A stretch of DNA of 57,180 bases from a virus (taxonomy: Duplodnaviria > Caudoviricetes). Where the stretch lies: IMG/VR virus record IMGVR_UViG_3300030107_003246, positions 1 to 57,180 of that record; one strand, 5' to 3'. Below, piece after piece: positions 25,514-50,295 of the stretch. Below the pieces are notes generated by a model. The model was not told the origin of the DNA. It ran no database searches and worked only from the letters and a program-made list of their open reading frames with translations. The number at the start of each line of letters is the position of its first letter. Position 1 is the stretch's first letter. A program made the position numbers and the translations under genes.

Positions 25514-25792
25514 ATGAGAAAAAGGCATTGGAAAGATAGAAAAAATAGAAAATGTCCATCTTGTAGTAAGATGCTGACATATTCGAGAAAAGATGCTTTT
25601 GATAGAGCAGTCGGTAATAATAGTGTATGTAAGTCGTGCGCACAGATGGATAGAAAAGTAACTGTAGCTACGATTGAAAAGATGAAACAACCGAAATCTA
25701 TAGAGCATAAAAGAAAAATTTCAAAGTCAATGAGAGTTCATTGGCAAAGTAGAAGAGAAGATGTATGGCTTTACAAAAAAGTAAACAATTAA
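25514..25792 (+). CDS. Small zinc-ribbon plus NUMOD3-like DNA-binding protein
   Basis: CPSC...CKSC; KSIEHKRKISKSM NUMOD3-like motif; no nuclease domain seen. Confidence 0.6.
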   Translation: MRKRHWKDRKNRKCPSCSKMLTYSRKDAFDRAVGNNSVCKSCAQMDRKVTVATIEKMKQPKSIEHKRKISKSMRVHWQSRREDVWLYKKVNN

Positions 25793-28313: not shown

Positions 28314-31300
28314 ATGGGCGTAAAAGTAACAGGACAATTTGAACCCGCAGGTGATTTTTCTATAGTAGATGGCGCAGATGTATCTGGAGCTATCACTGGT
28401 AGTCACTTTAGTGGTTCAGCTGCTTCAACAGGCTCATTCGGGCGTTTATTTGTTTCTTCATCTATGGAGCTTGGTGGTGGAATATTCACATCTGCTTCGA
28501 TAGCATCAGGTGGTGCTACTGGTGGAACTGGTGGTACTGGAACTGGTGGAACTGGTGGTACAGGTCAAACAGGCGGAACAGGTGGTACTGGTCAAACAGG
28601 CGCTACAGGTGGCACTGGTGGTACTGGCGGAACTGGTCACACAGGTGGTACTGGTGGTACTGGGCAAACAGGTGGTACTGGCGGAACTGGACAAACAGGT
28701 GGTACTGGTGGTACAGGAGAAACTGGAGCAACTGGTGGCACAGGCGGAACTGGTGGAACTGGTACTGGTGGTACGGGCGGAACTGGTCAAACTGGCGGAA
28801 CTGGTGGCACAGGTGAAACTGGCGGAACTGGTGGAACTGGTCACACAGGAGGAACTGGTGGTGTAGGTGCTACTGGCGGAACTGGTGGTACTGGTGGCAC
28901 AGGTGAAACAGGCGCTACAGGCGGAACTGGCGGAACTGGTGGAACAGGTACTGGTGGTACTGGCGGAACAGGTCAAACTGGCGGAACTGGTGGTACAGGT
29001 GAAACTGGCGGAACAGGAGGAACTGGAGCAACTGGTGGAACAGGTGGAACTGGTACTGGTGGTACTGGTGGAGATGGTGCTACGGGCGGAACTGGTGGTA
29101 CTGGTGGTGCTGGTACTGGTGGTACTGGTGGAACTGGGCAAACAGGTGGTACTGGTGGCACAGGTCAAACTGGTGGTACTGGTGGCACAGGTCACACAGG
29201 TGGAACAGGCGGAACTGGAACTGGTGGTACTGGTGGAACAGGCGCTACAGGTGGCACAGGTGGAACTGGTGGACAAGGTACTGGTGGTACTGGTGGAACT
29301 GGACATACAGGTGGAACAGGTGGAGATGGAGCAACAGGCGGAACTGGCGGAACTGGTGGCACAGGAGAAACTGGTGCAACTGGTGGAACTGGCGGAACTG
29401 GTGGAACAGGCACTGGTGGAACTGGTGGTACTGGACATACAGGTGGAACAGGTGGTACTGGACAAACAGGCGGAACTGGCGGAGATGGTGCTACGGGCGG
29501 AACTGGCGGAACTGGTGGAACAGGCACTGGTGGTACTGGTGGCACAGGTCAAACTGGTGGAACAGGCGGAACTGGTCAAACTGGCGGAACTGGCGGAACT
29601 GGGCATACTGGTGGTACTGGTGGAACGGGCACTGGTGGAACAGGTGGTACTGGAGCAACTGGTGGCACAGGTGGAACTGGTGGACAAGGAACTGGTGGTA
29701 CTGGTGGTACTGGTCACACAGGTGGAACTGGTGGAACTGGAACTGGTGGAACAGGTGGAGATGGTGCTACAGGTGGTACTGGTGGAACTGGACAAACTGG
29801 AGCAACAGGTGGAACTGGTGGTACTGGTGGACAAGGAACAGGCGGAACAGGTGGAACTGGACATACTGGTGGTACTGGTGGCACAGGTGGAACTGGAGAA
29901 ACGGGCGCTACTGGTGGTACTGGTGGAACTGGTGGAACAGGCACTGGTGGAACTGGCGGAACTGGGCAGACAGGTGGAACTGGTGGTACAGGTCAAACTG
30001 GCGGAACAGGTGGAACTGGAGAAACAGGCGGAACTGGTGGCACAGGTCACACAGGTGGAACAGGTGGAGATGGAGCAACAGGCGGAACTGGTGGAACAGG
30101 TGGAACTGGAACTGGTGGAACTGGTGGTACAGGCGCTGCGTCTACCGCTACTGGGGGTACTGGAGGAACTGGTGAAACAGGTGCAACGGGAGGCACAGGT
30201 GGAACTGGTGGAACAGGTACTGGCGGTACTGGTGGAACAGGCGCTACAGGTGGAACTGGCGGAACTGGTGGACAAGGAACTGGTGGAACTGGTGGTACTG
30301 GTCACACAGGAGGAACTGGCGGAACTGGACAGACAGGCGGAACTGGTGGAACAGGCGCTACAGGTGGTACTGGTGGAACTGGTACTGGTGGAACAGGTGG
30401 AGATGGAGCAACTGGTGGCACTGGTGGTACAGGTGGAACTGGGGAAACAGGCGCTACAGGTGGAACTGGTGGAACAGGCGGAACAGGCACTGGTGGAACT
30501 GGTGGTCAAGGTGCAACTGGTGGTACTGGTGGTACAGGTCACACAGGCGGAACTGGTGGAACTGGAGCAGCTAGCACAGCAACTGGTGGTACTGGTGGAA
30601 CTGGAGAAACAGGTGCCACAGGCGGTACTGGTGGTACTGGCGGAACTGGTACTGGTGGTACTGGTGGTGTAGGTGCTACTGGCGGAACTGGTGGCACAGG
30701 TCACACAGGCGGAACAGGCGGAACTGGACATACTGGTGGTACAGGTGGAACTGGAACTGGTGGAACAGGAGGAACTGGAGCAGCTAGCACAGCAACTGGT
30801 GGTACTGGTGGTACTGGTCAAACAGGCGCTACTGGTGGTACAGGTGGAACAGGCGGAACTGGCACTGGTGGAACTGGTGGTACTGGTGAAACAGGTGGAA
30901 CTGGTGGCACAGGTCAAACTGGTGGAACTGGTGGAACTGGAGCGACTGGTGGAACTGGCGGAACTGGAACTGGTGGAACAGGTGGAGATGGAGCAACTGG
31001 TGGAACTGGGGGAACTGGTGGTACAGGTGAAACTGGAGCAACTGGTGGTACTGGTGGTACTGGTGGAACAGGCACTGGTGGTACTGGTGGTGTAGGTGCT
31101 ACAGGAGGAACTGGCGGAACTGGACATACAGGTGGAACTGGTGGAACTGGAGCAGCTAGTACAGCAACAGGAGGAACTGGTGGTACTGGACAGACAGGCG
31201 CTACAGGTGGAACTGGTGGTACTGGTGGAACTGGTACTGGTGGTACTGGTGGTGTAGGAGCAACTGGCGGAACTGGTGGAACTGGGCATACTGGTGGCAC

Positions 31301-34300
31301 TGGTGGAACAGGTCATACTGGTGGAACAGGTGGAACTGGAACTGGTGGTACAGGCGGAACTGGCGCTGCGTCTACAGCAACTGGCGGAACTGGTGGTACT
31401 GGAGAAACAGGTGGAACAGGCGGAACTGGTCAAACTGGCGGAACTGGTGGTACTGGACAAACAGGTGCTACAGGCGGAACTGGTGGAACAGGTGGAACTG
31501 GTACTGGTGGTACTGGTGGAGATGGTGCTACTGGCGGAACTGGCGGCACAGGTCAAACTGGCGGTACTGGTGGCACTGGACATACAGGCGGAACTGGCGG
31601 AACTGGTACTGGTGGTACTGGTGGTGTAGGAGCAACTGGCGGAACTGGTGGCACAGGTGGAACTGGAGAAACAGGCGCTACTGGCGGTACTGGTGGTACT
31701 GGTGGAACTGGCACAGGTGGAACTGGTGGAACTGGAGCAGCTAGCACAGCAACTGGTGGTACTGGTGGAACTGGACAAACTGGAGCAACTGGTGGAACAG
31801 GAGGAACTGGACAAACAGGTGGTACTGGTGGTACTGGACATACTGGCGGAACTGGTGGAACTGGTACTGGTGGAACTGGTGGTGTAGGTGCTACTGGTGG
31901 AACAGGCGGAACTGGCGGCACAGGAGAAACTGGAGCAACTGGTGGTACAGGTGGAACAGGCGGAACTGGCACTGGTGGTACTGGTGGTCAAGGTGCTACG
32001 GGCGGAACTGGTGGTACAGGTCACACAGGTGGAACTGGCGGTCAAGGAGCAACTGGTGGAACTGGTGGAACTGGTACAGGAGGAACTGGTGGTGTAGGTG
32101 CTACTGGTGGAACTGGCGGAACAGGTGGAACTGGAGAAACAGGCGCAACTGGCGGAACTGGTGGTACTGGTGGAACAGGAACTGGCGGAACTGGTGGTCA
32201 AGGTGCTACGGGCGGAACTGGTGGTACTGGACATACAGGTGGAACAGGTGGAACTGGAGCAGCTAGTACAGCAACTGGTGGAACAGGTGGAACTGGACAG
32301 ACAGGCGCAACTGGCGGAACTGGTGGTACTGGTGGAACAGGCACTGGTGGTACTGGTGGTACAGGTCACACAGGTGGTACTGGTGGAACTGGAGCGCAAG
32401 GAGCGCAAGGTGCAACTGGTGGTACTGGTGGAACAGGCGGAACTGGTACTGGTGGTACTGGTGGTGTAGGTGCTACAGGTGGTACTGGTGGAACTGGCGG
32501 TACAGGTGAAACTGGAGCAACTGGCGGAACTGGTGGTACTGGTGGAACTGGTACTGGTGGAACAGGTGGTCAAGGTGCTACAGGTGGTACTGGTGGAACT
32601 GGAGCAACTGGTGGAACAGGTGGAACTGGAGCAACTGGTGGAACAGGTGGAACTGGAACTGGTGGAACAGGTGGTACTGGAGCAGCTAGTACAGCGACTG
32701 GTGGTACTGGTGGAACTGGTCAAACTGGCGGAACAGGCGGAACTGGAGCGCAAGGAGCGCAAGGTGCAACTGGAGGAACTGGTGGTACTGGACATACAGG
32801 TGGAACAGGCGGAACTGGTACTGGTGGTACAGGCGGAACTGGAGCGCAAGGAGCGCAAGGTGCAACTGGTGGAACAGGTGGTACTGGACAAACTGGAGCA
32901 ACAGGTGGAACTGGTGGAACAGGTACTGGTGGAACTGGCGGAACTGGGGCGCAAGGAGCGCAAGGTGCAACTGGTGGAACTGGTGGCACAGGTCAAACTG
33001 GAGCAACTGGCGGAACTGGTGGAACTGGAACTGGTGGAACAGGTGGTCAAGGTGCGACTGGTGGAACTGGTGGTCAAGGTGCTACAGGCGGAACTGGTGG
33101 TACTGGAGCGCAGGGAGCGCAAGGTGCGACTGGTGGTACTGGTGGCACAGGTCAAACTGGAGCAACTGGTGGTACTGGTGGTACTGGTACTGGTGGTACA
33201 GGCGGAACTGGAGCGCAGGGAGCGCAAGGTGTAACTGGTGGTACAGGCGGAACTGGAGCGCAGGGAGCGCAAGGTGCAACTGGTGGAACAGGTGGTACTG
33301 GTCAAACAGGTGCTACGGGCGGAACTGGTGGAACAGGTACTGGTGGAACTGGTGGTACTGGAGCGCAAGGAGCGCAAGGTGTAACTGGCGGAACAGGTGG
33401 TACTGGAGCGCAGGGAGCGCAAGGTGTAACTGGCGGAACAGGTGGAACTGGAGAAACAGGTGGAACAGGCGGAACTGGAGCAGCTAGTACAGCAACTGGT
33501 GGAACAGGCGGAACTGGAGCAACTGGTGGTACTGGTGGAACTGGTACAGGAGGAACTGGTGGTACTGGAGCAGCTAGCACAGCAACTGGTGGAACAGGTG
33601 GTACTGGACAAACTGGAGCAACTGGTGGAACAGGTGGAACTGGTCAAACTGGCGGAACTGGTGGTACTGGAGCAGCTAGTACAGCAACTGGTGGAACAGG
33701 CGGAACTGGAGCGCAAGGTGCAACTGGTGGAACTGGTGGAACAGGTACTGGTGGAACAGGTGGAACTGGAGCAGCTAGCACAGCAACAGGCGGAACTGGT
33801 GGAACTGGTGGTACAGGTGCTGCGTCTACAGCAACTGGTGGAACTGGTGGTACTGGTGGTACTGGAGCAGCTAGTACAGCGACAGGCGGAACTGGTGGCA
33901 CTGGACAAACAGGTGCTACGGGCGGAACTGGTGGAACTGGTACTGGTGGAACTGGTGGTACTGGAGCAGCTAGTACAGAAACAGGTGGAACTGGTGGTAC
34001 TGGTGGAACTGGAGCAGCTAGTACAGAAACAGGTGGTACTGGTGGTACTGGTGGCACAGGCGGAACTGGTGGAACTGGAACTGGTGGAACTGGCGGTCAA
34101 GGAGCAGCTGGTTCAGATGGTGATGATGGAGCGCAAGGTGATCAAGGTGCTCAAGGTGCTCAAGGTGCTCAGGGTGCTCAAGGTGCTCAAGGTCCTCAAG
34201 GTAATCAAGGTCCTCAAGGTGGTACTGGTGGAACAGGCGCTACAGGTGGTACTGGAGCTACTGGAGCAACTGGTGGTACTGGTGGTACTGGTGGAACTGG

Positions 34301-34844
34301 AGCAGCTAGTACAGCGACTGGTGGAACAGGTGGAACTGGAGCAGCTAGCACAGCAACAGGTGGAACTGGTGGAACTGGTGGAACAGGTGGTGCTGGTACA
34401 TCCGATGGTGGTACTTTTGACTTAGGTGCTACTCAATGTGATGGATTATATGTAGGTAATGGTGCAACCAATTCATCAGCGGCTACAGATACTGTTAGAT
34501 GTGAGGGTGATGTTATTGCTTTCTACTCATCAGATGTAACCTTAAAAGAAAATATTATTCAAATTGAAGATCCTTTAGAAAAGCTGAAAAAGATAGGTGG
34601 TTATACTTATGATTGGAAGGATAGTTATATTGAATCACAAGGTGGTTTAGATGATAAATTTATGAGAAAAAGTGATGTTGGTGTTTTGGCTCACGAAATA
34701 AAAGAAATTATGCCAGAGGTTGTTGGTGAAAATAAAAGAACAGGAATATTGGGTGTTAAATATGAAAAAATAGTTCCGTTGTTAATTGAGTCTATCAAAA
34801 AATTAACAGAAGAATTAGAGGAGTTAAAAAATGGCAGTTCCTAG
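28314..34844 (+). CDS. Giant Gly-Gly-Thr repeat (collagen/polyglycine-like) fibre with C-terminal S74-type chaperone
   Basis: 2176 aa; G-X-T triplets; C-terminal [50 protein letters not shown]. Confidence 0.85.
28509..34394 (+). repeat. About 5.9-kb coding tandem repeat, basic unit GGN-GGN-ACW, with higher-order blocks
   Basis: Degenerate 9-mers ggtggaact/ggtggtact/ggcggaact/ggtggaaca with variant triplets [21 protein letters not shown] and interruptions GT and AASTAT. Confidence 0.97.
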
Positions 34845-35880
34845 CACAGGCACTCTTAGTATGGTGGGAATCTTTTCAGAAAAAAATGAAGATGATTATA
34901 GTGCATTTAATGAAGATGGTGAATCTAATATAAGTTTACTTGGTTTATCTAGAGATGGTACTGATGATAGCAGTGGCGGAGATTTAACTATAAATACAGC
35001 TGGTGGTCAAGGGGGAGATGGAGTGGCGCCATACGCTATGAGTGAGTTTTATGGTTACGATCACGATTTAAGTATATCATATGCAGCTTTTATTCTTGAT
35101 GATTGGAATGAGGGAACAATAAATGCTGGTAATGATGTCAATATGGATACAAGAGCAACATTCAATACAACCGATTTTGAAGATGGTGACCTATATGTAG
35201 ACCACGGAACTAATCAAACTACAAACACTCAAACTGATAGACCTTTATGGACAACATATGGTACACCATCAATAGTTTCAGATGAAATGAGATTTACTAA
35301 TACTGATGAGACATATGGTATGTTTTGTAAGACAACAGACCAAAATAATCCTGGTATTAATAATGTACCTACAACTCAATGTGTTGCGTGGAGATTTAGA
35401 TTTTTTATGAATACTACTAATAATAAAGATTCGAATTTGCACATAAATATGAATACCACCAGTCATACTAATCCAGCAGTAACTACAAATTCTTATCAAT
35501 TTAGAATTAGGGATAATTCAGACCCTGCTACTGGAAGAATAGATTTTTATAAAAGAATTTCTACAACATCAAATACTTTATTGGCTAGTAGTACTTCAGG
35601 TGCTTACACTTTGGGAACAACTCAAGATTTTATTTTATCTTGGCATAGAGCTGGTACTGGTCGTTCAGCTACATATACTTGGAAGGTTGGTATGGCACCA
35701 ACCACAACACCTAGTGCTAATATAATAAAACATAATAATGAACTTACTGTAAATGATGGCACATATTTTATTGCTAGAGGAATTTCAATGAGAGCAGCTA
35801 AAGCTATGAGTGTGCCAACATCAACTCATTATCACTCTTATGATATGCTTTCTTGTGTACAGATGGATGACCCATCATAA
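34831..35880 (+). CDS. Putative fibre-tip adhesin / receptor-binding protein
   Basis: [11 protein letters not shown]...[12 protein letters not shown]-terminal attachment-type motif, then a lectin-like beta domain; overlaps the end of the S74 fibre gene. Confidence 0.55.
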
Positions 35881-36218
35881 TGGCTACATATTTTTCAGGA
35901 AGTGATGGTAATATTTATGTAGAACCATATGATAATCAATTTACAGCTTCATTATACAAAACTCAATATATTCAAATTGTTGAAGATGCAGATGATGATG
36001 ATGGTGTATCTACTATGCCTGGTATATTATACGATACAAGTAATAATATGTATCAAGAATATAAGTGGAGTGCTGCTACTCTTATAGATGGTAGTGGCAG
36101 TTTTGATGAATCAAATTTACAAGGGTGTATATGGGTTTATAATTTAACTGATTCTCAAAAAAACACAATAGAAAATGATGCTCAATACATAGCTACTTAT
36201 GTCACATCAAGTTTATAA
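35880..36218 (+). CDS. Small acidic hypothetical protein, likely fibre-associated
   Basis: TAATG coupling to the upstream gene; carries FSGS, FTAS, GSGS and VTSS motifs. Confidence 0.5.
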   Translation: MATYFSGSDGNIYVEPYDNQFTASLYKTQYIQIVEDADDDDGVSTMPGILYDTSNNMYQEYKWSAATLIDGSGSFDESNLQGCIWVYNLTDSQKNTIENDAQYIATYVTSSL

Positions 36219-36246
36219 AAATAATTGTTTTTTATATTTTTAGTTT

Positions 36247-36255
36247 ATACTTATA
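36247..36255 (+). promoter_or_regulatory. Late promoter variant ATACTTATA heading the modification operon
   Basis: One mismatch to consensus; ATG at 36259 is at the same +12 offset as 25514; no SD. Confidence 0.5.
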
Positions 36256-36258
36256 TAT

Positions 36259-37011
36259 ATGGGTTATAGTAATAGAGTAGAAAAAATAAAATACGATTTT
36301 GTATCACCATTCGGACCTAGCATAATGGTAGGAACTATTCCTGACAGCATATACGATGAGTTTAGTGAAATAATTCACAGAGTTATTGAAGAAAAACAAA
36401 GAAGTCACACAAAACAATTGTCAGGTAGATTAGATGAAGAATGGACTGTAGAGAGACAAGAATTATTTGAAACTAGAACTGAAGAGTTTATGACCTCTAT
36501 AGTTAATAAATATTGTACAGATTTATTGGAAAGACTTTATTCAGTTAAACATTTGTCTGAAGAAAATGACCGAAGTATTAAAGAACAAACAAATATTCCT
36601 ATAGAGGTTTTGAATACAGGTGGTTGGGTAAATAATATGGGAAGTTATGAATATAATCCAGTTCACTACCATCCGTTTTGTAATATAACGACTGTATTTT
36701 ATTTTAATAGTATTGATGGTGATTTTATAGACGAAATTATAGCACCTACAAATACGGAGAGAAATCATAATGCTCCACCATCAGAACCAGGAAATACAGA
36801 TGATGGTATGCTTGAAATAATTTACAACTCTTCACACTATTTTGAGTTGGGTACTATGAGGATAAAGCCAAAAGAAAAACAATTTTTAATTTTTCCAGCA
36901 CATTTATTACATCAGGTATATCCATTTATATCTAATAAAAAAAGAATTAGCGCTTCATTTAACTTTACAGTAAATGCTGATTCGCAAATTATAAATTATG
37001 GGGCGAGGTAA
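36259..37011 (+). CDS. 2OG-Fe(II) oxygenase (TIGR02466-like)
   Basis: GWVN...YNPVHYH, FPAHLLHQVYP, RISASFN. Confidence 0.85.
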   Translation: MGYSNRVEKIKYDFVSPFGPSIMVGTIPDSIYDEFSEIIHRVIEEKQRSHTKQLSGRLDEEWTVERQELFETRTEEFMTSIVNKYCTDLLERLYSVKHLSEENDRSIKEQTNIPIEVLNTGGWVNNMGSYEYNPVHYHPFCNITTVFYFNSIDGDFIDEIIAPTNTERNHNAPPSEPGNTDDGMLEIIYNSSHYFELGTMRIKPKEKQFLIFPAHLLHQVYPFISNKKRISASFNFTVNADSQIINYGAR

Positions 37012-42000: not shown

Positions 42001-43034
42001 TAAGAGTGCATCACGCTGTTCCGAGAGAAGAACAAACTTCAGAAACTCTTATGTATATAGATACACCGAGACCAATATATTGGAATTCTAATATATCAGG
42101 TGAAGATTTTCAATCGAAAGCCGATTGGGCTTGGATGGTTCAACATCAATTCGAAAAAATGATATTGTTTTTAGCTAAGAAAGCTTCAATGAATTCTAAT
42201 GTTAAATACTTAACAGGTTCTGGTGGTTGCTTTCTTAATTCAATTGCTAATCAAAAAATAGTTGATTTAGGTTTATTTGATGACCACTTTTATGTACCAG
42301 CATCGGATGATGGTGGCATATCAATTGGAACTGCCTTTTATGGATATTATAATTTTCATCCTGATAAAGGTAAGGTAAATTTAAATAATAAAGAAGAGAC
42401 TGTTTTTATGGGTAAGGATTACTCTGAGGAGGAAATAATGAGTGATATAGAAAATTTTGATAAAATAATTTATGAAAAAATTGAGGATGAAGAGGAGTTA
42501 GCTAAAAAAGTTGCTTCTTTTGTACACGATGGAAAGGTTGTTGGTTTCTTTCAAGGTGGTAGTGAAATGGGGCCTAGAGCATTAGGACATCGTAGTATAT
42601 TAGGAGACCCAACTCATCCCGATATGCAAGATATAATCAATAATAGGGTAAAACATAGAGAGTGGTACAGACCTTTTGCTCCTGCTTGTACTGTAGAAGA
42701 TGCTCATAAATATTTCACACATACTACAGAAAGCCCTTATATGTTGTTAATAGCTCAAGTAAAAGAAGAATTCAAAGAGAAGTTGCCATCTATAACACAC
42801 GTAGATGGAACTGCTCGATTACAAACTGTAAGGAGAGAAACTAATCAGAGGTACTATGATGTGATAAAAGAGTTTGGAAAACTATCGGGTATTCCAGTAG
42901 TTTTGAATACTTCTTTTAATGAAGCTGGTGAACCTATAGTAGAAACTCCTGCTGATGCTATAAGATGTTTTCTTAAAAATGATATTGATTATTTAGTTGT
43001 AGAAAATTATTTAATAACACCAATCAGAGACTAA
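39039..43034 (+). CDS. Trifunctional fusion: TibC/Aah-like protein O-heptosyltransferase, FkbM methyltransferase and NodU/CmcH carbamoyltransferase
   Basis: LGDNFAW, FIGTSSGLSWLAWA, VCTGCW...CPKH...QFECTKKI; VLDLGAHIGVF, KCDVEGAEY, LLEFHH; HHLAHAYSA, GKLMGLASYG, GPRALGHRS, KHREWYRPFAP, LNTSFN. TTG start after GGAG. Confidence 0.88.
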   Translation: MIEVVKDIEIEVKFDAGPFVQITSKAKKDTEYNVEFWDSDSDYLVFDSMIKINTWTAFSRKWYTNWRIVVYEDSKLIYQYQLDLKGKDVFIRLASNMLGDNFAWISYVEEFRKKHNCNIFCGTLFPEIFEETYDFTFWKEGSEWPSKEFYATYEVGVFGYKNEEPFYEFDNSCNKQSLSDISMQQAATDILGLPYKEIKPKLNLEKFESKNKIEGKYVCIGIHASAQLKYWNYENGWQKIVDYFLNIGYKVIYLSREKSGFMGNKIPTGVIDKSGDLPLEDRIGDLKNAELFIGTSSGLSWLAWAVDIPVVLIHGHNHSWYNFADKTKHINLENDDSVCTGCWHTDGFAPGDWYFCPKHKDTDRQFECTKKITPEMVIEGIEVMLNDKQKSIKTLQSAINLTMDVTSEVGKMWFYNTTKSEFYVRVVDPYSDLTLYTSKITFEDNTAFWLPFKYVTPWENYYLDKLNVEVYTTDQTKIKTFDVKLNDNVVNNKDEFKYVTNKFDVSWANHKEIFYADEYKGLFDLNEDSVVLDLGAHIGVFTRWVSKQNVKVCYSLEPNPTLWNGLNKTFENSDNVKLLNNALGELTEDRWLKYPQYSTSNGSFYINDWPEIEDWVNPTNYNNPFTYERDIVVSNIKCLSFDDFIEQNKIEKIDVIKCDVEGAEYEIFRNASEDYLKENVSTILLEFHHNKDRLKPILDKLIKCGFLVKYLKGDADAYDGTILFTKKKSKPVKVGEDRWVMGANIGHDSGATLVKNGKIFVSVNSERITRIKHDEANDDFPWKAMDYCLDYAGIKKDDLERIVWNGIGLPPELAIDPNGLWASRLKENGYNFSEDRLNYCTHHLAHAYSAHYSSGFEESVSIVVDAGGETNYREVIDKFFTNKIAHMKKYPIEKCVEASSIYEIKKGVFTKIYSAFKPFPEADLWPTLGQSIGEFYALGCNYIGMDGLYDAGKLMGLASYGRPEESKKRFDEPVVYLDPDPKSGDYFIRVHHAVPREEQTSETLMYIDTPRPIYWNSNISGEDFQSKADWAWMVQHQFEKMILFLAKKASMNSNVKYLTGSGGCFLNSIANQKIVDLGLFDDHFYVPASDDGGISIGTAFYGYYNFHPDKGKVNLNNKEETVFMGKDYSEEEIMSDIENFDKIIYEKIEDEEELAKKVASFVHDGKVVGFFQGGSEMGPRALGHRSILGDPTHPDMQDIINNRVKHREWYRPFAPACTVEDAHKYFTHTTESPYMLLIAQVKEEFKEKLPSITHVDGTARLQTVRRETNQRYYDVIKEFGKLSGIPVVLNTSFNEAGEPIVETPADAIRCFLKNDIDYLVVENYLITPIRD

Positions 43035-43037
43035 TAA

Positions 43038-44327
43038 ATGACTTGGGTTTTAGGTGTAAACATAGGGCATCAATCTGGCGCTACTTTAGTAAGAAGTGGT
43101 AAGGTATTTGTTTCTATAAATTTAGAAAGAATTACTAGAATTAAAAATGACAATGGCTATCCACCGCCAGAAGAAAATAATTGGGATTATTCATTAATAG
43201 AATTTCCTTGGAAAGCTATGGACTATTGTTTAGATTATGCTAACATACAGAAAACGGATTTAGATAGAATTGTTTGGAATGGTATTGGTTTAACACCAGA
43301 CCAACAAATAAGTGTAGATGGATTTTTAGTTCAGAAGTTGAAAAAAAATGGATACGATTTGCCAAATGATAGATTAAATTATTGTACACATCATTTAGCA
43401 CACGCATACTCAACTCATTACTCAAGTGGTTTTGATGAATCTATTATTTTAGTAGCTGACAATGCTGGTGAAATGAATTACAAACAAACAGTAGATGATT
43501 TTGTAGAAAATAAAATAGCACATATCCAAAAAACAAGACTTGGTGAGTGTGTTGAAGCTACTAGTATTTACGAAGTTAAGAAAGGTGTATTTAAAAGAAT
43601 ATACTCTCGCTACAAAGCAGCTTACTCATATTTTAATACAGTAGGAAAACACAAAGATGGGTCTGGTTTTAGCACTAGATATAGGTTAGGAAAGTCACTT
43701 GGAGAGTGGTATTATGATAATTGTATTCACATAGGTTTGACTGGAGATGATGCTGGAAAACTTATGGGATTAGCTCCTTTTGGAGATGAAGAAAAAGTTA
43801 GAGAAAAGTATAAAGAACCAATGGTATACATTGATAAAGATCCTAAAGCTGGTGAATACTTAATAAGAGCTCACGAATATCTTCCATATGAAGAGCAAGA
43901 AGAATTGGATGAAATGTATATAAATACACCAATACCATCTTATATGAGTGATACTATATATGAAAATGATTTTCAATCTAAAGCAGATCATGCTTGGTTT
44001 GTACAAAATCAATTTGAAAGAGTTGTTGAATTTTTAGCTAAAAAGTGTTCAATGATTTCAGATGTCAAAAACTTTTGTGCTGCAGGTGGCAGTTTCTTAA
44101 ATTCTGTGGCAAATCAAAAAATAATAGATTTGGATATTTTTGATAATCACTTTTTTGTTCCAGCAGCTGATGATGGTGGTATAAGTTTAGGATGTGCTTT
44201 TTATGGTTACTTTAACTTTCATAGTAAAAAAGGAATTTTCAACTTATCTAATAGAGAGGATAGTGCTTTTATGGGAAAAAAATATAATGAAAAAGAAATA
44301 TTAGGAGCTCTTAATGAATATAGCTAA
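43038..44327 (+). CDS. Carbamoyltransferase N-terminal (Kae1-like) domain only, paralog of the preceding gene
   Basis: ERITRIK, HHLAHAYS, AGKLMGLAPFG, GGSFLNSVAN, PAADDGGISLG; ends before the GPRALG domain. Confidence 0.85.
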   Translation: MTWVLGVNIGHQSGATLVRSGKVFVSINLERITRIKNDNGYPPPEENNWDYSLIEFPWKAMDYCLDYANIQKTDLDRIVWNGIGLTPDQQISVDGFLVQKLKKNGYDLPNDRLNYCTHHLAHAYSTHYSSGFDESIILVADNAGEMNYKQTVDDFVENKIAHIQKTRLGECVEATSIYEVKKGVFKRIYSRYKAAYSYFNTVGKHKDGSGFSTRYRLGKSLGEWYYDNCIHIGLTGDDAGKLMGLAPFGDEEKVREKYKEPMVYIDKDPKAGEYLIRAHEYLPYEEQEELDEMYINTPIPSYMSDTIYENDFQSKADHAWFVQNQFERVVEFLAKKCSMISDVKNFCAAGGSFLNSVANQKIIDLDIFDNHFFVPAADDGGISLGCAFYGYFNFHSKKGIFNLSNREDSAFMGKKYNEKEILGALNEYS

Positions 44328-46260
44328 AAAGCCACAAACCGATGTGGATATTCTTCATTATATTAATCAGACAAAAGAATTTTGGAAAGTAACAGATTTT
44401 CAAAAAGAGATATTAGATTTTGAGGGTTTCACACCACATATTCCTGATGACCTTAATTTTTACATAGGACATCCTGAAATGGCAGTAGATTACAGATCTG
44501 ATCGTGGTACTTCTTTTGGAGATATTATTCCATATACTAGATTGCCTGAGTTATTAAAAATATATTATAGAGGGTGTAAAGTATTTATACCAAAATGGTT
44601 CATTGATGTTTTTCAGCACAATCCATATATTGATGGAACACACGACTTTGATTATAAGTGGGGTTCTATGGGAACTTTTGGAACAACGATTCAGCGATGT
44701 ACTAATGTTTGGGGATTGAGAACAGAAGATTACACACCAAAATTATTTGCTTCACCGAATATTAAAAAAAGAAAAAACACTATATTGTTTACATTAAATA
44801 GTAAAACTGGTGGAAGATTTGGAGATAATGATTTATTAGAAGAAGTAGTTGAACATTTAGGAAAAAAATATCACTGTGTACAATTAGGTTTGTCAGATGA
44901 CTATTTAGTCAAATCAGCACATAAACACGTTTTAAATATTTCTAGAAATAAATTAATTGACTTTGTTGCAGAATTTCCTATATACATAGGCGCACAGAGT
45001 AGTATATATCATATAGCAAAGGGTTTGGGTTTAAAGACAATTGGGATATTGCCAGAAAAACAAAGACTAAAAGAAGCAGGTAGTGTACAAACTATATTTG
45101 GTGGATTTCATCCAGACTATGTACAATTACCTTTGCTTACAGTAACCAATACTATGGAAGTTGTACCTTGTGGAGAAGAACATTTTGAAAGAGCTAAATA
45201 TTTTCAACCAATGTTTCCCAATCAACCGCCAAATGGGGGCGCAGGTGAAAACTCTATAGCAGGATATAATGACACTATAGCACATTTAGGTTGGTTATAT
45301 CCCGATACACCACATTTAACTATGAGCCCTTTGGGAACTGAAAGATGCCCTACGCTATCTAAAGAAACTATTGATATGGCTTTAAATGATGAGATATATC
45401 CATTCAATGATGATAGATTGTGGGATTATTACAAACATAAAGAGTTGTGGACTGCACCAAATACTGATCCTCTAAATATTGCAAAAGGCTTTTCAACAGT
45501 GCTTAAAAAAGAAAAACCTAAAATAATATCATCTCATATACCTAGAACAGGTGGAAATTTATTTAGAAATGTTTTATACGATTTATATGGTGTTCGTGAT
45601 TGTTTAGAAAATGTAAAAGATAAAATATATTATGATGAAAAGTATTTTACACGTAAAGGTGATATGGTTATGTACGAAGATTATGGAGATAAGCCAGAAT
45701 ATAATTATTATGAAGTCAATCCCACAGTGGATGTTCCACAATACGAATGTATACACGGGCATTTTAGATTAGGTAAATATAAACAATTATTTAATTCTCA
45801 TAAATTAATTGTTTGGCTTAGAAATCCTATAGATAGATTAATATCACACTATTACTTTTTAAAAAATTCACCACTACATATCGATCCTATACAAAACAAA
45901 CTGATAGCAGAAGAATTAGACTTATATCAATTTTGTGAGTTAGAAACTTCTAAAAATATCTATAAAAAGTATTTTCAAAAATATTCTAAAAATATAGACT
46001 TCATAGGAATTACTGAAAGTTATAATGATAGTTTGAGAAAGTTTGAAAAAATGTTTGATGTTGAAGTAGGAGATACATATCCATATTTTGATATAGAATC
46101 AGGCGATTCAGATTTTAAAAACAATATACAAAATTCAAAGTGGGCTGTATATAAAAAAGAATATGATAAAATAGATAGAAACTTTATAAAAAAATTAAAT
46201 CAAGATGACATAGAAATATACAATCAATCAGTAAGAATAAATTCGGAATATAAATTATGA
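44314..46260 (+). CDS. GT9-like glycosyltransferase fused to a sulfotransferase-family domain
   Basis: SFGDII and YIGAQSSIYHIAKGLG (GT9-like); HIPRTGG and LRNPIDRLISHY (PAPS-binding motifs); FIGITE. Confidence 0.7.
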   Translation: MNIAKKPQTDVDILHYINQTKEFWKVTDFQKEILDFEGFTPHIPDDLNFYIGHPEMAVDYRSDRGTSFGDIIPYTRLPELLKIYYRGCKVFIPKWFIDVFQHNPYIDGTHDFDYKWGSMGTFGTTIQRCTNVWGLRTEDYTPKLFASPNIKKRKNTILFTLNSKTGGRFGDNDLLEEVVEHLGKKYHCVQLGLSDDYLVKSAHKHVLNISRNKLIDFVAEFPIYIGAQSSIYHIAKGLGLKTIGILPEKQRLKEAGSVQTIFGGFHPDYVQLPLLTVTNTMEVVPCGEEHFERAKYFQPMFPNQPPNGGAGENSIAGYNDTIAHLGWLYPDTPHLTMSPLGTERCPTLSKETIDMALNDEIYPFNDDRLWDYYKHKELWTAPNTDPLNIAKGFSTVLKKEKPKIISSHIPRTGGNLFRNVLYDLYGVRDCLENVKDKIYYDEKYFTRKGDMVMYEDYGDKPEYNYYEVNPTVDVPQYECIHGHFRLGKYKQLFNSHKLIVWLRNPIDRLISHYYFLKNSPLHIDPIQNKLIAEELDLYQFCELETSKNIYKKYFQKYSKNIDFIGITESYNDSLRKFEKMFDVEVGDTYPYFDIESGDSDFKNNIQNSKWAVYKKEYDKIDRNFIKKLNQDDIEIYNQSVRINSEYKL

Positions 46261-47870
46261 GTAAGGTATTTGGTATAATAGGTCACGCTCACGATTCTAC
46301 AGTTGCTTATATAGAAGATGGTGAAATAAAAGTGGTTATAGAAGAGGAGAGAATTCGTAAGATTAAATCTTGGGCACTTAGTGGGGTTTATCCGTGGTTT
46401 GCTATGGATACAATAGAAAATGATATGGGATATAAATTAGAGGATTCGGACTATATTTGTATAGCAGAAGTAGCAGAGCCAGATTTAGATAGATATAAAT
46501 CAGAAGAGATGAGAAGAAAGGTGGTTACATATCCACATCATTTACTTCACGCAGTTGGCGCATATTATACATCAGGTTTTAAAGAAAAGACTTTAGTTAT
46601 TACTCACGATGGAAGTGGTTTTAAAACTGTTGGTAGGGTTTATTTAGGTTATGATGATAAATTACATTTAGTACATAAACAACCAAAAGAAAAATCAGCG
46701 TCTATTGGACAATATTTTGGTCGTTGTACAACTCAGTTTGCACCAAAAGGAGCTGTGTGGCATTCTCTTAAAGATGAGGGAAAGCTTATGGGTATGGCTG
46801 GTCACGGAAAATATAATGAAGAGATGTATAATAAATTAAAACAATTATTACACTACACCAATGATTTGAATTTTGGTCCTTGTGGAAATTGGAATAGAGT
46901 AGAAACATTTTTTGAATCACTTCGTGAAGAGGAATCTGATTGGAGTGATAATTTCGAACTAAGAGCCGAGTGGGCTTTCAATGTACAAAAGTTATTAGAA
47001 GATGTTTTTTTAGAATATTTAGAAGATTTACATAAATTTTATCCTGAATATAAAAGGGTGGCAGTTGCTGGTGGCATTTTTGCTAATGTAAAATTAAATC
47101 AAAAAATAAATGAATTGGATTGGGTTGATGAAGTTTATGTGTATCCTGCTATGAGTGATTCTGGACTAGCATTAGCAGCTGCTATAATGAAATCAGTAGA
47201 ATTAGGTGAGTGGGAAAATAAAAGATTTGAAAATGTATTTTTAGGAAACGATTATACAAAAGACGAAATAAAAAAAGAAGAAAAAGAATGGAATTTCAAT
47301 AAAGAAAAATTTGACTCTAAAAAAGTTGCTAAACTATTAAATGATGGAAATATTATTGGTTGCTTTCAAGGAAAAATGGAATATGGACCTAGAGCATTGG
47401 GTTCAAGAAGTATTTTAGTTAGAGCTACCGATAAAGAGATGCACGAAACTTTAAATAATAGATTAGAAAGACACGAAATAATGCCATTTGCTCCAATTAT
47501 TTTAGGAGAGAAAGTAGATGATGTTTGTAAAAATACAAAATCAAAAATGACTGCAGAGTTTATGACAATGTGTTATACAGTAAAAGATGAGTGGGTTGAT
47601 AAAATACCAGCAGTAGTTCATAGAGTGGATAATACACTAAGACCTCAATTAGTTTTTAAAGAAAGAAATAAATTCTTTCATAGTATTTTAAATGAATATT
47701 ACAAAATATCTAAAATACCAGTTCTCTTAAACACATCTTTTAATGGTCACGGACAACCGATTATATATGATTTGAATCAGCCATTTGAACATTTAGAAAA
47801 AGGAACTGTTGATTATTTAGTTTTGGAAGATAATTTATATTGGAGTAAAAATGAGAAGAAGGCCGATTAG
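46257..47870 (+). CDS. Full-length NodU/CmcH carbamoyltransferase
   Basis: HDS, EEERIRKIK, HHLLHA, HDGSG, EGKLMGMA, GPRALGSRS, MPFAP, LNTSFNGHG. Confidence 0.92.
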   Translation: MSKVFGIIGHAHDSTVAYIEDGEIKVVIEEERIRKIKSWALSGVYPWFAMDTIENDMGYKLEDSDYICIAEVAEPDLDRYKSEEMRRKVVTYPHHLLHAVGAYYTSGFKEKTLVITHDGSGFKTVGRVYLGYDDKLHLVHKQPKEKSASIGQYFGRCTTQFAPKGAVWHSLKDEGKLMGMAGHGKYNEEMYNKLKQLLHYTNDLNFGPCGNWNRVETFFESLREEESDWSDNFELRAEWAFNVQKLLEDVFLEYLEDLHKFYPEYKRVAVAGGIFANVKLNQKINELDWVDEVYVYPAMSDSGLALAAAIMKSVELGEWENKRFENVFLGNDYTKDEIKKEEKEWNFNKEKFDSKKVAKLLNDGNIIGCFQGKMEYGPRALGSRSILVRATDKEMHETLNNRLERHEIMPFAPIILGEKVDDVCKNTKSKMTAEFMTMCYTVKDEWVDKIPAVVHRVDNTLRPQLVFKERNKFFHSILNEYYKISKIPVLLNTSFNGHGQPIIYDLNQPFEHLEKGTVDYLVLEDNLYWSKNEKKAD

Positions 47871-50295
47871 AGCTCCTTGGGAGGGCGAATTTATGAAACA
47901 GAGACAAGACCATATTAAAATAATTAAAGATCCTATTATTAGATGTATACACACTAATGATGAATATTTTACCTTATATGTAGAACAATATATAAAGAAT
48001 CAAAAAGGACAATTGTGTTTTTGGAATTCATATAGTCTAAATGGTATGAATGCATGGCATGGAAATTGGGTTCAATGGCACGCTGATTGGGTTTTTAAAG
48101 TGTATGGGTTAAATAAAGGTAAATATACTTTTTTAAAAAGATATGATTATGATTTAAAAGGTAAAAATGTACAAATAGTTTTAGATACAAAAGATTGGGA
48201 AGAAGCTGGTGAGTGGTTAGGTTATTGTAAGAAATTTCAAAAAGAAACTGGTTGTAAATTATTCATCGCATCAGATGAGTTTAATAGAGGACATTTTTCC
48301 AATCAAAATACAGACCAGATTATAAAATTTACAGAAACTTATAATAAAGGTGTAGAGACAATTGATGGCATAGGTGTACCACCTGATGAATATAGCAATT
48401 CACCGATACACGATTTATATGCTAGGTATGATATAGGTAGGTTTCCTTTGACTACTAGAAAGAAGTATGGATTTGAAAGAGACCAATGGAGAGTTGATGA
48501 TAAAGATAAAGAAAGTTCACATAACTCTATTACTTTTAAACAACAGAATAAATTACCTTTAGGTTTAATTGAAATGATGAATTTTACATTCGATGGTTGG
48601 AAAAATCCTGTGACTATTTCACAATCACAATTAGATGAATATTATGGTATAGTTGATAAAGATGTAGAAATAGAGGAAGCAACATCAGCTGACATAGTAA
48701 AACAAATACTTGGATTCAAAACAAAATATTGGGATGGTGTAGATTTAAAAAAAGAAGGACATAGAAAAATAAAAGGAGAATTTACTCAACACGAATTCTT
48801 TTCAGGTGGATTTCATAGTTGGGGTAAAGGAGAAAATGCCACACGAGTTGCTATACAAATATTGAGTTACAATAAACCTTACTATTTAAAAAGAACTTTA
48901 GATTCTTTAATGGAAGTTATAGAACACAATGATAAAATTTGTGTATTGGAACAATCTGATAAACCTGATTTGAAAGAACAAGCAATTGCTGTTTGTAAAG
49001 AATATGATAATATAACTATAATTTCTATTGATGAAAATTTAGGACAAAGAGGTGCAACAAATAAAGTTTGGGAAAGTGGATTTTTTGATAATTGCCAATA
49101 CATTATGTTTTCAGACCACGATAATGAATATCACGAACCATTAACTATACTTTGTGATAAATTAGATGAAGAAAATAATGTGACGATAGCAACATTTTAT
49201 AATTCACCCGAACACGACATTACACACAAAGATGGTAATTGGTTATACAAACAGACTGCTAGAGCTGGTAATATGATGATGAGGCGTGATGAATTAATTC
49301 AAATGCTACCAATTGATGTAGACTTATATTCAGAGACAAAAACAGATGAGGATTACTGTGCTTGGTTTGCAGGTTTAGATTGGTGGGTACAGTGGTGGCA
49401 CGATGAAAGTGGTGGTAAACAAAATAGAGATAATTTTGTAGCTTGTTATATGGGTGGTTGTACACATTTTGGAGTAGAATCAACTTGGCAAGGTAAATAT
49501 GATGATGAAATTCCACGACACGAATCACTTTTGATGAAAGATAAAACTATGGAACAGATAGTAAAAAAATATCCACCGAGAAGAGAGTATAATCACGGAA
49601 AAGAGTGGTGGTATGAAAAAGAAAAGCTTGATTTAAAAGATGTTACATTGGTAATAGTGGATTGTATAGATTATGAAAGAGCTTTAAGAGCTGTCAATAT
49701 TTCTACTATATATGCCAAATTTGGAGATGTTAAATTTTTTACATCTATGGATAAAGATAATGATGATATAGTAAAAATACCACATTGTCAATCTAATTTT
49801 GATGTTATACATTTTATGTGGAAGAAAATGAATTCATATATCAAAACTAAGTATATTTTACATATAGAATTTGATGGTTTTATTTTAAATCCAAAAGCTT
49901 GGAAAGATGAGTTTTTAAATTATGATTATATAGGTGCACCGTGGTGGTATGAAGAAAATAATGTTGGAAATGCTGGATTTAGTTTAATAAGTAAAAAAAT
50001 GTTAGACTTTATACAAAAAGATGATGTTATGGACTTATATCCATCAGATGATGACGCTATATGTAGAATTAATAGAAAATATTTAGAGGAAAACGGAATA
50101 AAATTTGCACCTGAAGAGTTAGCAGCTGATTTCTCTTTTGAGGCTAATGAAAAGCGTGGTGATAAGTGGGATGGACAGTTTGGATTTCACAGTCCATCAA
50201 TGGAAAATGAAAGACACCCTAATAAATTTAGAGGTGGTATAACAAATATTGATAATTGGCCTGATAAAGATAAGATTAGATGGCCGAATGGTTAA
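47851..50295 (+). CDS. Fusion: degenerate heptosyltransferase-like N-terminus, GT2 glycosyltransferase and DUF5672-like GT-A domain
   Basis: YDLKGKNVQI...CKLF resembles LDLKGKDVFI...CNIF of 39039; ILSYNKPYYLKRTLDSL and FSDHD (DxD); FDGFILNPKAW...YDYIGAPW...VGNAGFSL. Confidence 0.7.
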   Translation: MRRRPIRAPWEGEFMKQRQDHIKIIKDPIIRCIHTNDEYFTLYVEQYIKNQKGQLCFWNSYSLNGMNAWHGNWVQWHADWVFKVYGLNKGKYTFLKRYDYDLKGKNVQIVLDTKDWEEAGEWLGYCKKFQKETGCKLFIASDEFNRGHFSNQNTDQIIKFTETYNKGVETIDGIGVPPDEYSNSPIHDLYARYDIGRFPLTTRKKYGFERDQWRVDDKDKESSHNSITFKQQNKLPLGLIEMMNFTFDGWKNPVTISQSQLDEYYGIVDKDVEIEEATSADIVKQILGFKTKYWDGVDLKKEGHRKIKGEFTQHEFFSGGFHSWGKGENATRVAIQILSYNKPYYLKRTLDSLMEVIEHNDKICVLEQSDKPDLKEQAIAVCKEYDNITIISIDENLGQRGATNKVWESGFFDNCQYIMFSDHDNEYHEPLTILCDKLDEENNVTIATFYNSPEHDITHKDGNWLYKQTARAGNMMMRRDELIQMLPIDVDLYSETKTDEDYCAWFAGLDWWVQWWHDESGGKQNRDNFVACYMGGCTHFGVESTWQGKYDDEIPRHESLLMKDKTMEQIVKKYPPRREYNHGKEWWYEKEKLDLKDVTLVIVDCIDYERALRAVNISTIYAKFGDVKFFTSMDKDNDDIVKIPHCQSNFDVIHFMWKKMNSYIKTKYILHIEFDGFILNPKAWKDEFLNYDYIGAPWWYEENNVGNAGFSLISKKMLDFIQKDDVMDLYPSDDDAICRINRKYLEENGIKFAPEELAADFSFEANEKRGDKWDGQFGFHSPSMENERHPNKFRGGITNIDNWPDKDKIRWPNG

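Follow-up and report, generated by a model that had tools for sequence, protein, structure and literature searches.

The 57,180-b window examined here, the whole of IMG/VR virus record IMGVR_UViG_3300030107_003246, carries the gene of a giant fibre with G-X-T repeats (28314-34844, + strand) and, between the fibre genes and the tail sheath gene, a cassette of eight enzyme genes (36259-50295, +). The N-terminus of one of them, open reading frame (ORF) 39039, has the strong marks of a TibC/Aah-family protein O-heptosyltransferase-like domain, and in other viral contigs genes of this family were observed beside genes for G-X-S/T repeat fibres. What the genes encode, the family to which the key enzyme belongs and its genomic pairing with repeat fibres together make it probable that this marine T4-like phage O-glycosylates its own giant G-X-T fibre in the host cytoplasm, and that other cassette enzymes then tailor the glycan.

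The N-terminus of ORF 39039 resembles TibC and Aah

Residues 11-382 of ORF 39039 matched NCBIfam model TIGR04414 with 278.1 bits (E 9.8e-83; model positions 13-372 of 374). This model, 'autotransporter strand-loop-strand O-heptosyltransferase', is the equivalog for Aah/TibC and has a curated cutoff of 200 bits. The same N-terminus aligned with the solved TibC structure 4rap (E 7e-53). The residues described as essential in TibC are the catalytic base Asp-110, the sugar-binding Thr-226, Lys-230, Arg-286 and Trp-305, and the iron-finger Cys 339, 342, 358 and 370; the thumb residues Phe-265/Val-266 are named as well (PMC4358343). Their counterparts in the phage protein are D100, S225, K229, R282 and W301; all four iron-finger Cys are kept (C339, C342, C356 and C368), and the thumb residues align with F261/M262. 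Residues D100, K229 and W301 and the four Cys were invariant across 8 phage homologues. At the position of TibC Pro-300, where the AAH residue is said to set heptose stereoselectivity (PMC4358343), the phage protein has Ser-296, as in AAH. The Pfam model of the beta-barrel, TibC_1st, stayed under its cutoff (E 0.0025, 18 bits, cutoff 27); the NCBIfam alignment spans the same region. Based on the score, the structure alignment and the kept residues, we conclude that the domain belongs to the TibC/Aah family at the sequence level, as the preliminary description of this DNA had assigned it. No gene for an autotransporter, the usual partner of a bacterial autotransporter heptosyltransferase (BAHT), was found in the window; the neighbour is a phage fibre.

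The TibC-like domain was present in 4 of 50,697 cultured or deposited phage records, namely three huge-phage records and Microcystis phage Mel-JY01. In Mel-JY01 it ends a 1226-aa fusion that contains a GT4 glycosyltransferase (GT) and is annotated 'methyltransferase FkbM', and the gene lies directly 3' of an 18%-Ser 'structural protein' gene. Comparable fusions are sulfotransferase-TibC and GT4-methyltransferase-FkbM in viral contig L005, and GT4-TibC in L160 and Mel-JY01. In L005 the fusions adjoin a T4-type portal gene (L005:9952-12378), which is split by an intein (Intein_splicing, E 4.9e-24) and lies directly 3' of the sulfotransferase-TibC-like fusion.

TibC-like genes and repeat-fibre genes in other viral contigs

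The pairing of enzyme and fibre was examined from both sides. An alignment of the 8 phage TibC-like domains, used as query, yielded at least 532 confirmed viral stretches in IMG/VR; the contigs include ones of 238-548 kb, so that the family is frequent in large and huge phage genomes. The best 80 loci, with up to 10 kb of flank per side, were chosen solely by the TibC-like domain. A repeat ORF (at least 150 aa, at least 18 G-X-[S/T] per 100 aa and at least 15% Gly) was present in 34 of these 80 loci, always within 6.6 kb, within 3 kb in 20 and on the same strand in 23. When the enzymes were clustered at 70% identity, 23 of the 36 clusters had a repeat-ORF neighbour. In control loci chosen by the sheath gene, a repeat ORF was found once in 75 (Fisher p about 1e-11 to 1e-13). 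The partners carry mainly G-S-S/G-T-S repeats and range from hundreds of residues to 2695 aa; that of L245 is 51% Ser and has the same chaperone-type C-terminus as the window fibre. Both TibC and AAH attach heptose to Ser (PMC4358343). FkbM-like matches were seen in 26 of the 80 loci. One locus of the 80, L220, is the L002 contig, a relative of the window described below.

On the fibre side, the viral collection was scanned for DNA encoding four GGT (Gly-Gly-Thr) triplets, which gave at least 130 stretches and among them 16 distinct flanked contigs with G-X-T-dense ORFs. Fourteen were scanned with Pfam; L120 was excluded for an ORF truncated by the end of the locus, and L132, of the same family as L105/L148, because its fibre reaches the locus end. 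A GT or carbamoyltransferase lay within 6 kb in 5 of the 14 G-X-T contigs and in 1 of 26 control loci of the same scan without a G-X-T-dense ORF (186 ORFs scanned; Fisher one-sided p 0.014); with related contigs collapsed, the count was 4/12 (p 0.027). The controls include a herpesvirus-like locus (L157, with BILF1, UL25 and assemblin) and a giant-virus-like one (L109, with a DUF5899 minor capsid protein and TET/JBP plus TAGT), so not all of them are phages. The enrichment seen from the fibre side is suggestive only, and the enzyme-side test is the stronger of the two.

Single contigs illustrate the pairing. DUF707 and GT4 genes lie directly 3' of a GGT-repeat ORF in L099, a GT4 gene begins 2 nt past a G-P-T-repeat ORF in L158, and in L116 a GT4 gene lies within 6 kb of the G-X-T ORF. 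L148 has a NodU-like carbamoyltransferase and a TibC-like fragment 5' of a 2293-aa G-S-S fibre, and L160 a GT4-TibC-like fusion (241 bits, TIGR04414) 5' of a G-S-T/G-G-T fibre. In L105, L148 and L160 the gene adjoining the fibre best matches HldE domain I, a heptose-7-phosphate kinase (E 5e-32, below cut-off). Contig G002 (L160, L218, L219; 37 kb) has a glyco-island around its G-S-T/G-G-T fibre gene, with RmlA/B/C/D-like, transketolase-like, GT2 and several methyltransferase genes and one heptose-kinase-like gene besides the GT4-TibC-like fusion. The co-occurrence of enzymes and fibres to which the preliminary description had looked for support was thus found across unrelated viral contigs (34/80 vs 1/75), as well as within the lineage of the window (3/3 vs 0/21, below).

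In 3 of the 26 control loci, prolyl 4-hydroxylase (P4H)-like 2-oxoglutarate (2OG)-Fe(II) oxygenases (L114:7007-7702, L128:14098-14712 and L154:7674-8930) adjoin Gly-rich or giant (up to 2040 aa) ORFs. This may be another, distinct pairing, in which prolyl-hydroxylase-like enzymes go with collagen-like proteins of phages.

The giant fibre

The gene and the main parts of its product are:

28314-34844 (+): giant fibre gene, 2176 aa
28512-34403 (+): G-X-T collagen-like repeat region, aa 67-2030, 31% Thr
34530-34724 (+): Peptidase_S74 intramolecular chaperone domain, aa 2073-2137 (E 2.9e-11; PHROG 33119)

Gly (1081), Thr (615) and Ala (162) dominate the 2176 residues. The repeat region consists of 53 runs of 5-24 triplets with Gly at every third residue; Y is mostly Thr, and X is mostly Gly, Ala, Gln, Glu or His, besides Val and Asp. 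The statement of the preliminary description that about one residue in three is Thr is accurate (602 of 1964 residues, 31%); the region has 2 Pro and no Lys. Its register is broken by a 2-residue 'GT' slip every ~11 triplets and by 19 'AAST' inserts. In the DNA, the repeat periods are 9 and 105 nt (TRF), and the GC content is 0.52-0.58 versus 0.28-0.38 elsewhere. The 1864-aa antisense ORF across the repeats (28506-34100, -) is not a gene but results from the GGN/ACN codon periodicity.

The Peptidase_S74 C-terminus points to a trimeric, self-cleaving fibre in which a trimerisation module flanks the repeats. The Pfam Collagen model (PF01391) did not match the window fibre, so 'collagen-like' describes the repeat and implies no family membership; PF01391 does match the fibres of L093, L136 and L160. 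A collagen-type helix rises 0.286 nm per residue, and as an extended helix of this type the repeat would span ~560 nm.

The enzyme cassette

Domains in the cassette were called with Pfam, NCBIfam and PHROGs, and for some parts with a PDB sequence search, hhalign and Atlas. L002 and G001 in the list are relatives that share part of the cassette.

36259-37011 (+): 2OG-Fe(II) oxygenase, PF13759 (Oxy_5) E 3.6e-13; absent from L002 and G001
37011-38489 (+): two-domain protein; C-terminus (aa 370-457) P4H-like 2OG oxygenase, Oxy_3 E 3.8e-6
38482-39042 (+): putative class I S-adenosylmethionine methyltransferase, 186 aa; weak, under Pfam cut-offs; 'ILEVGFGMG' motif
39039-43034 (+): ORF 39039, 1331 aa; fusion of TibC-like GT, FkbM methyltransferase and complete O-carbamoyltransferase
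39069-40184 (+): TibC/Aah-family (BAHT) O-heptosyltransferase-like domain, aa 11-382 of ORF 39039
40626-41159 (+): FkbM-family methyltransferase domain, aa 530-707 of ORF 39039 (E 1.5e-15)
41259-43016 (+): NodU/CmcH-type O-carbamoyltransferase, N and C domains, aa 741-1326 of ORF 39039
43038-44327 (+): carbamoyltransferase N (Kae1-like) domain alone, 57% identity to the matching part of ORF 39039
44314-46260 (+): 648-aa protein; Sulfotransfer_2 at aa 399-637 (PF03567, E 5.9e-10)
46257-47870 (+): complete O-carbamoyltransferase, N and C domains
47851-50295 (+): 814-aa protein; TibC-like N-module aa 40-200, GT2 aa 337-454, DUF5672 aa 656-769

The eight ORFs are tightly coupled, with junctions of -1, -8, -4, +3, -14, -4 and -20 nt, and lie within the structural module before the sheath gene, as had been described. 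The domain inventory given earlier is largely right, with some corrections. Two of the three 2OG oxygenases are recognized by Pfam (ORF 36259 and the C-terminus of 37011; among PDB entries the latter comes closest to B. anthracis prolyl 4-hydroxylase, E 5e-4). The third, at aa 5-185 of 37011, was called from HxD...H motifs and a match to PHROG 2954, which is labelled 'ferrochelatase'; a BLASTP comparison of this N-terminus with ORF 36259 was not significant. As for the two methyltransferases, FkbM is solid and 38482 is weak. The sulfotransferase domain in 44314 is confirmed. Three carbamoyltransferases had been listed: those at the C-terminus of 39039 (domain matches over aa 837-1326) and in 46257 are complete, with Carbam_trans_N and Carbam_trans_C (E 1.1e-71 and 2.4e-51, respectively, for the latter), and 43038 is half an enzyme, the N domain only. 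The two complete ones scored 152 and 138 bits against a NodU equivalog cutoff of 1000 bits and are thus family members, not NodU orthologues.

At least four glycosyltransferase-like domains had been proposed, of which two are solid, the TibC-like domain of 39039 and the GT2 domain of 47851. One more is a partial module: aa 40-200 of 47851 correspond to the TibC beta-barrel/N-lobe without the nucleotide-sugar lobe (hhalign 96%, E 4e-9); this N-terminus had no PDB match, and its Atlas score (0.83) was too low for use. DUF5672, in the same protein, is a domain of unknown function. The fourth, at the N-terminus of 44314, is a lead only, from Atlas (0.95) to GT9-like clusters. Its aa 1-398 gave no Pfam and no PDB sequence match and 1.6% in hhalign against the phage TibC profile, and AlphaFold, given an alignment of 3 sequences, produced no usable model (pLDDT 30.5). 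Among the eight cassette proteins we found no hydrophobic membrane-span-like segment (maximum KD19 1.38), no flippase, polymerase, ligase, exporter, transport or polyprenol-phosphate GT family, and no enzyme of the GT8/lipopolysaccharide (LPS)-core type.

Cassette and fibre within the lineage

With the sheath protein as query, the best 80 of at least 604 confirmed viral loci were examined. At 77% sheath identity or more, a homologue of the last cassette gene lay just 5' of the sheath gene in all 4 contigs with upstream DNA; at 73% or less, a cassette homologue preceded the sheath gene in none of the 49 loci with at least 500 b upstream. The loci without the cassette have a fibre gene with an S74-type end, then a small conserved ORF, then the sheath gene. 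In the window this ORF (50357-50662, +, 101 aa) lies just 5' of the sheath gene, as in nearly all relatives, and marks the downstream edge of the insertion site.

A GGT/G-X-T fibre was present in all three cassette contigs with a visible fibre region, namely the window, L002 (fibre of 2704 aa, G 0.42, T 0.25) and G001/L216, the contig behind L009, which starts within GGT repeats and whose fibre has a different C-terminal domain. No G-X-T fibre ORF was found in the 21 cassette-less relatives with at least 3 kb upstream. L002 and G001 retain the fibre and the remaining cassette and lack the trio 36259-39042 (the oxygenases and the small methyltransferase), which is therefore an add-on rather than core. 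On this point the preliminary description needs correction. The dN/dS values of the five shared genes against L002 (0.10-0.28; sheath 0.13) indicate that they are under purifying selection.

Expression context

Five intergenic sites carry an exact copy of motif ATATTTATATAT on the + strand, and four others a copy with one mismatch; they lie before structural genes:

5543, 14325, 19356, 50703 and 54167 (+): exact ATATTTATATAT sites
36247-36258 (+): ATACTTATATAT, one-mismatch copy of ATATTTATATAT, abutting the ATG of ORF 36259

The spacing of ATACTTATATAT to the ATG is 0 nt, versus 13-123 nt at the other motif sites. Variants of ATATTTATATAT also precede the cassette or TibC-like gene in L002 and L216. 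Strong terminator-like hairpins follow solely the capsid gene, the sheath gene and ORF 53461, and none was found between 22278 and 53264. ATATTTATATAT is a putative late promoter. The late-promoter variant that had been noted ahead of the cassette is a one-mismatch copy of this motif in a terminator-free block. The motif is not the T4 consensus on the coding strand; read on that strand, ATATTTATATAT includes the T4 late-promoter octamer in reverse complement. For TATAAATA, the T4 late promoter itself, there was no enrichment (13 found vs 9.3 expected, mostly the reverse strand of ATATTTATATAT), and neither were sigma-70-like sites. One metatranscriptome run (X20) contained 5% of the sampled words and gave contigs matching 39991-40479 and 41319-41479, with 2 differences each; these were set aside as evidence, since RNA-library contigs show neither transcription, timing nor strand.

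The window and its relatives

The source record is linear and estimated to be ~32% complete. The long ORFs of the window are all on the + strand and together form a T4-like structural module, in the order capsid, neck/terminator, fibre genes, enzyme cassette, sheath, tube and baseplate hub-like protein:

10887-12500 (+): large terminase
12511-14316 (+): portal
16695-17294 (+): prohead protease
20551-22173 (+): major capsid protein
22278-25475 (+): gp13-like and gp15-like neck/terminator proteins
26997-28304 (+): fibre-like protein, 435 aa, N-terminal 'SSASTGSFG' motif
34831-35880 (+): 349-aa ORF without assigned function, N-terminus conserved
35880-36218 (+): 112-aa ORF, no family match
50757-53264 (+): tail sheath gene; the first strong terminator-like hairpin comes after it, at 53285-53316
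54211-54699 (+): tube; a baseplate hub-like protein is also in the module

An N-terminal '(S/A)(A/T)STGSFG' motif is common to ORFs 2-3208, 25765-26667, 26997-28304 and 28314-34844 and is probably part of a common attachment module; in L002 an N-terminus of the 26997 type is joined directly to the G-X-T repeats. The N-terminus of 34831-35880 is kept 3' of the fibre gene in L002, L028, L038 and L046, whether the cassette is present or not.

By capsid and sheath protein identity, the closest records are the uncultured 484-kb phage LR756508 (54% and 39%), Microcystis phage Mel-JY01 (51% and 48%) and Flavobacterium phage immuto (49% and 47%). A megablast of the cassette against the 50,697 phage records gave no match at the nucleotide level. 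Near-identical DNA was found in 19 runs from marine metagenomes, belonging to three named studies and to unnamed ones, and two further studies yielded contigs that span the cassette and differ from it little.

No tRNA gene was found in the window. Between its scaffold-like genes, a 75-aa ORF (19122-19349, +) matches ribosomal protein S21 (PF01165, E 6.5e-15); Mel-JY01 has RpsU annotated at the equivalent spot, with the protease gene on one side and the capsid gene on the other. The 1263-aa product of 5575-9366 (+) combines an AAA_33/Zeta_toxin-like P-loop kinase (aa 26-199) with a cytidylyltransferase-like nucleotidyltransferase (aa 501-585). In 16 of the 80 loci (the best 80 of at least 532 stretches) a homologue is located at most 10 kb from the TibC-like gene, and in Mel-JY01 the distance is 3 kb. 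The protein could be a sugar-activating or an NAD-salvage enzyme, or the proximity could be mere synteny with the terminase.

Interpretation and alternatives

We infer the acceptor, the sugar, the order of steps, the biological role and the tasks of the tailoring enzymes as follows. The TibC/Aah-like domain of gp39039 would transfer a sugar from a nucleotide donor, by family ADP-heptose, to Thr/Ser hydroxyls of the repeats. FkbM, the fused carbamoyltransferase, the two further carbamoyltransferase genes, the sulfotransferase and the GT2/DUF5672 protein would extend and decorate the glycan; the TibC-like N-module of 47851 may dock on the same substrate or on the enzyme ring; and the oxygenase/methyltransferase trio specific to the window may contribute more modifications, of an optional kind. 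The result would be a trimeric fibre without proline, collagen-like or mucin-like and up to ~0.5 µm long if fully extended as a collagen helix. That a single polypeptide unites a GT, a methyltransferase and a carbamoyltransferase speaks for sequential action on one substrate, and the TibC-like N-module on the GT2 protein likewise argues for one common substrate. The presence of a TibC-like enzyme beside Ser/Thr-rich fibres in many phages suggests that these phages probably sugar-coat their own fibres. A plausible reason for such chemistry is that O-glycosylated Thr at the Y position can stabilise proline-poor collagen helices, and glycosylation of Thr/Ser may be what allows a proline-free G-X-T helix to fold at all. 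On a wider scale, we lean slightly towards the view that iron-finger GTs of the TibC family and giant G-X-S/T fibres form a widespread, undescribed class of phage self-glycosylation, with mucin-like fibres of up to ~0.5 µm on large aquatic phages and with the window as its most elaborate variant (carbamoyl, methyl, sulfate). The observation reported in the preliminary description is thereby confirmed and its overall interpretation partly supported; heptose as the sugar, roles in stability, adhesion or shielding, a coat over the whole virion and a single shared glycan stay at the level of proposals.

Several points weigh against fibre self-glycosylation. TibC/Aah are known for acting on Ser of beta-helical autotransporter repeats, not on G-X-T Thr (PMC4358343). 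No G-X-S/T ORF was found in the DNA covered in 46 of the 80 TibC-like loci and 13 of the 36 clusters, and no GT nearby in 9 of the 14 G-X-T contigs; the enzyme-side controls (1/75) all belong to a single phage group and comprise less DNA (730 kb vs 1379 kb in total). The window carbamoyltransferase and sulfotransferase had tblastn matches in one of the 80 loci only, L220 (= L002), and the wide fibre pairing holds for the TibC-like gene only. Within the lineage, the association concerns one clade and one block of adjacent genes and hence counts as a single evolutionary event. The site 5' of the sheath gene is reported to be a hypervariable accessory region in cyanomyoviruses (PMC3037559), and for pelagimyophages the published interpretation of GT-rich islands amid tail-fibre genes is modification of the host O-chain (PMC7029224).

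The last two points lead to the main rival, in which the cassette is an accessory island in a hyperplastic site. Its enzymes would alter the capsule, O-antigen or LPS of the host during infection, e.g. as a barrier against superinfection, and it would adjoin the fibre genes only because islands of this kind insert there. O-chain modification is favoured for the GTs and rfaE amid pelagimyophage tail-fibre genes (PMC7029224), and cyanophage sugar-gene clusters have been read as LPS genes in papers that mention, besides, a hypervariable gp17-gp18 region and the sporadic occurrence of carbamoyltransferases and 2OG oxygenases (PMC1079782, PMC3037559). The confinement of the cassette to one clade of relatives is island-like, and G002 has a full dTDP-rhamnose-like set typical of O-antigen pathways. 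However, the key enzyme comes from a family whose members glycosylate proteins in the cytoplasm and are not GTs for lipid-linked glycans, the cassette encodes no membrane protein, polyprenol-phosphate GT, flippase, polymerase or exporter, and envelope remodelling does not predict the enrichment of TibC-like genes beside G-X-S/T repeat ORFs; we hold it to be unlikely. Direct side-chain chemistry, with oxygenases hydroxylating the fibre, sulfo-, methyl- and carbamoyltransferases acting on protein hydroxyls and a glycan made by a part of the cassette at most, appears distinctly improbable. Hydroxylation followed by sulfation has been predicted for co-encoded collagen-like or tail-collar proteins (PMC2938197), the C-terminus of 37011 is closest to collagen prolyl 4-hydroxylases, and P4H-like genes lie beside Gly-rich or giant ORFs in the three control loci mentioned above (3/26). 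Against this, L002 and G001 have no oxygenases yet keep the fibre, the sulfotransferase and the carbamoyltransferases, the repeat region has 2 Pro and no Lys, and at least three GT-type domains are present. The known acceptors of NodU/CmcH-type carbamoyltransferases and Sulfotransfer_2 enzymes are carbohydrates or small molecules. Side-chain chemistry may hold for the window-specific oxygenases and not for the conserved core. There is very little to recommend another target, be it phage DNA (glycosyl or carbamoyl hypermodification) or a small secondary metabolite: phage GTs classically glucosylate DNA (PMC9614988, PMC12619734) and metabolite synthesis has been suggested for the dioxygenase arrays of cyanophages (PMC2938197), but neither the cassette nor the DNA beside it contains a gene for nucleotide metabolism or base modification, the cassette lies between fibre and sheath genes behind the structural-gene motif, and the TibC family acts on proteins. 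Such a target would also leave the pairing with repeat fibres unexplained.

Comparison with known systems

To our knowledge, phage-encoded virion glycosylation has so far come solely from mycobacteriophages, where Freeman et al. reportedly described it in 2023, and TibC-type enzymes solely from bacteria, where they glycosylate adhesins of Gram-negatives. A literature search that left most subscription journals outside its reach found no link of TibC-like enzymes to phages or to phage collagen-like fibres. Judging from the contigs surveyed, the enzyme-fibre pair appears common in large aquatic phages, more widely than the preliminary description had proposed. If this is true, a protein-heptosyltransferase family known for glycosylating adhesins is also a common tool of large aquatic phages; 'LPS genes' amid the tail-fibre genes of marine T4-like phages need re-reading, some of them serving to dress the virion; and glycan-coated fibres bear on adsorption, host range, stickiness and particle decay in seawater.

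BclA has a trimeric G-X-T collagen-like repeat in which Thr carries O-glycans containing methylated unusual sugars; its repeats are short and Pro-rich, and it is served by rhamnose/anthrose pathways and other GT families. The window fibre, in comparison, has ~600 triplets, Gly at X and almost no Pro. L158 is closer to BclA, with G-P-T repeats directly followed by a GT4 gene. BclA is a collagen-like glycoprotein in the exosporium of Bacillus anthracis (PMC6222408; title cited in PMC9614988).

In the pelagimyophage 'host recognition cluster' and in cyanomyovirus LPS clusters, GT and sugar-nucleotide genes are interleaved with tail-fibre genes, and collagen-repeat fibre proteins are noted in the same genomes; these papers take the enzymes for modifiers of host O-antigen/LPS without linking them to the repeat fibres (PMC7029224, PMC1079782, PMC3037559). 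By capsid and sheath the window is not close to these T4-like marine phages, its nearest records being LR756508, Mel-JY01 and immuto. The operons of Iyer et al. 2010 co-encode 2OG dioxygenases, methyltransferases and sulfotransferases with putative substrates that are Gly-rich tripeptide-repeat or phage-tail-like proteins; they are cellular and have no TibC-type GT, and the proposal there is hydroxylation and then sulfation of the protein itself (PMC2938197). Mimivirus is comparable in combining collagen-like G-X-Y proteins with an oxygenase and a glycosyltransferase that modify them; its L230 hydroxylates Lys and glucosylates the hydroxylysine, (PMC9614988). The window repeats, by contrast, are free of Lys, and relatives do without the oxygenases.

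Mycobacteriophage GTs modify the phages' own structural proteins, with glycans at the C-termini of capsid and tail-tube subunits (PMC12619734, PMC12801897), and TibC forms a dodecameric ring that transfers heptose from ADP-heptose to protein Ser (PMC4358343). As in mycobacteriophages, the GT genes lie in or beside the structural operon; the presumed target differs, being a repeat fibre, as do the GT family and the presence of genes for carbamoyl, methyl and sulfate tailoring. The closest parallel is TibC/AAH with TibA/AIDA-I. The enzyme family is the same, soluble and cytoplasmic, and the TibC/AAH gene lies near that of the long repetitive surface protein, rich in hydroxy amino acids, which its product hyperglycosylates (PMC4358343), just as the window gene lies near such a fibre. 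Unlike TibC/AAH, the window enzyme is viral and fused to a methyltransferase and a carbamoyltransferase, and its presumed acceptor is a G-X-T (elsewhere G-S-S/G-T-S) collagen-like fibre instead of a beta-helical autotransporter.

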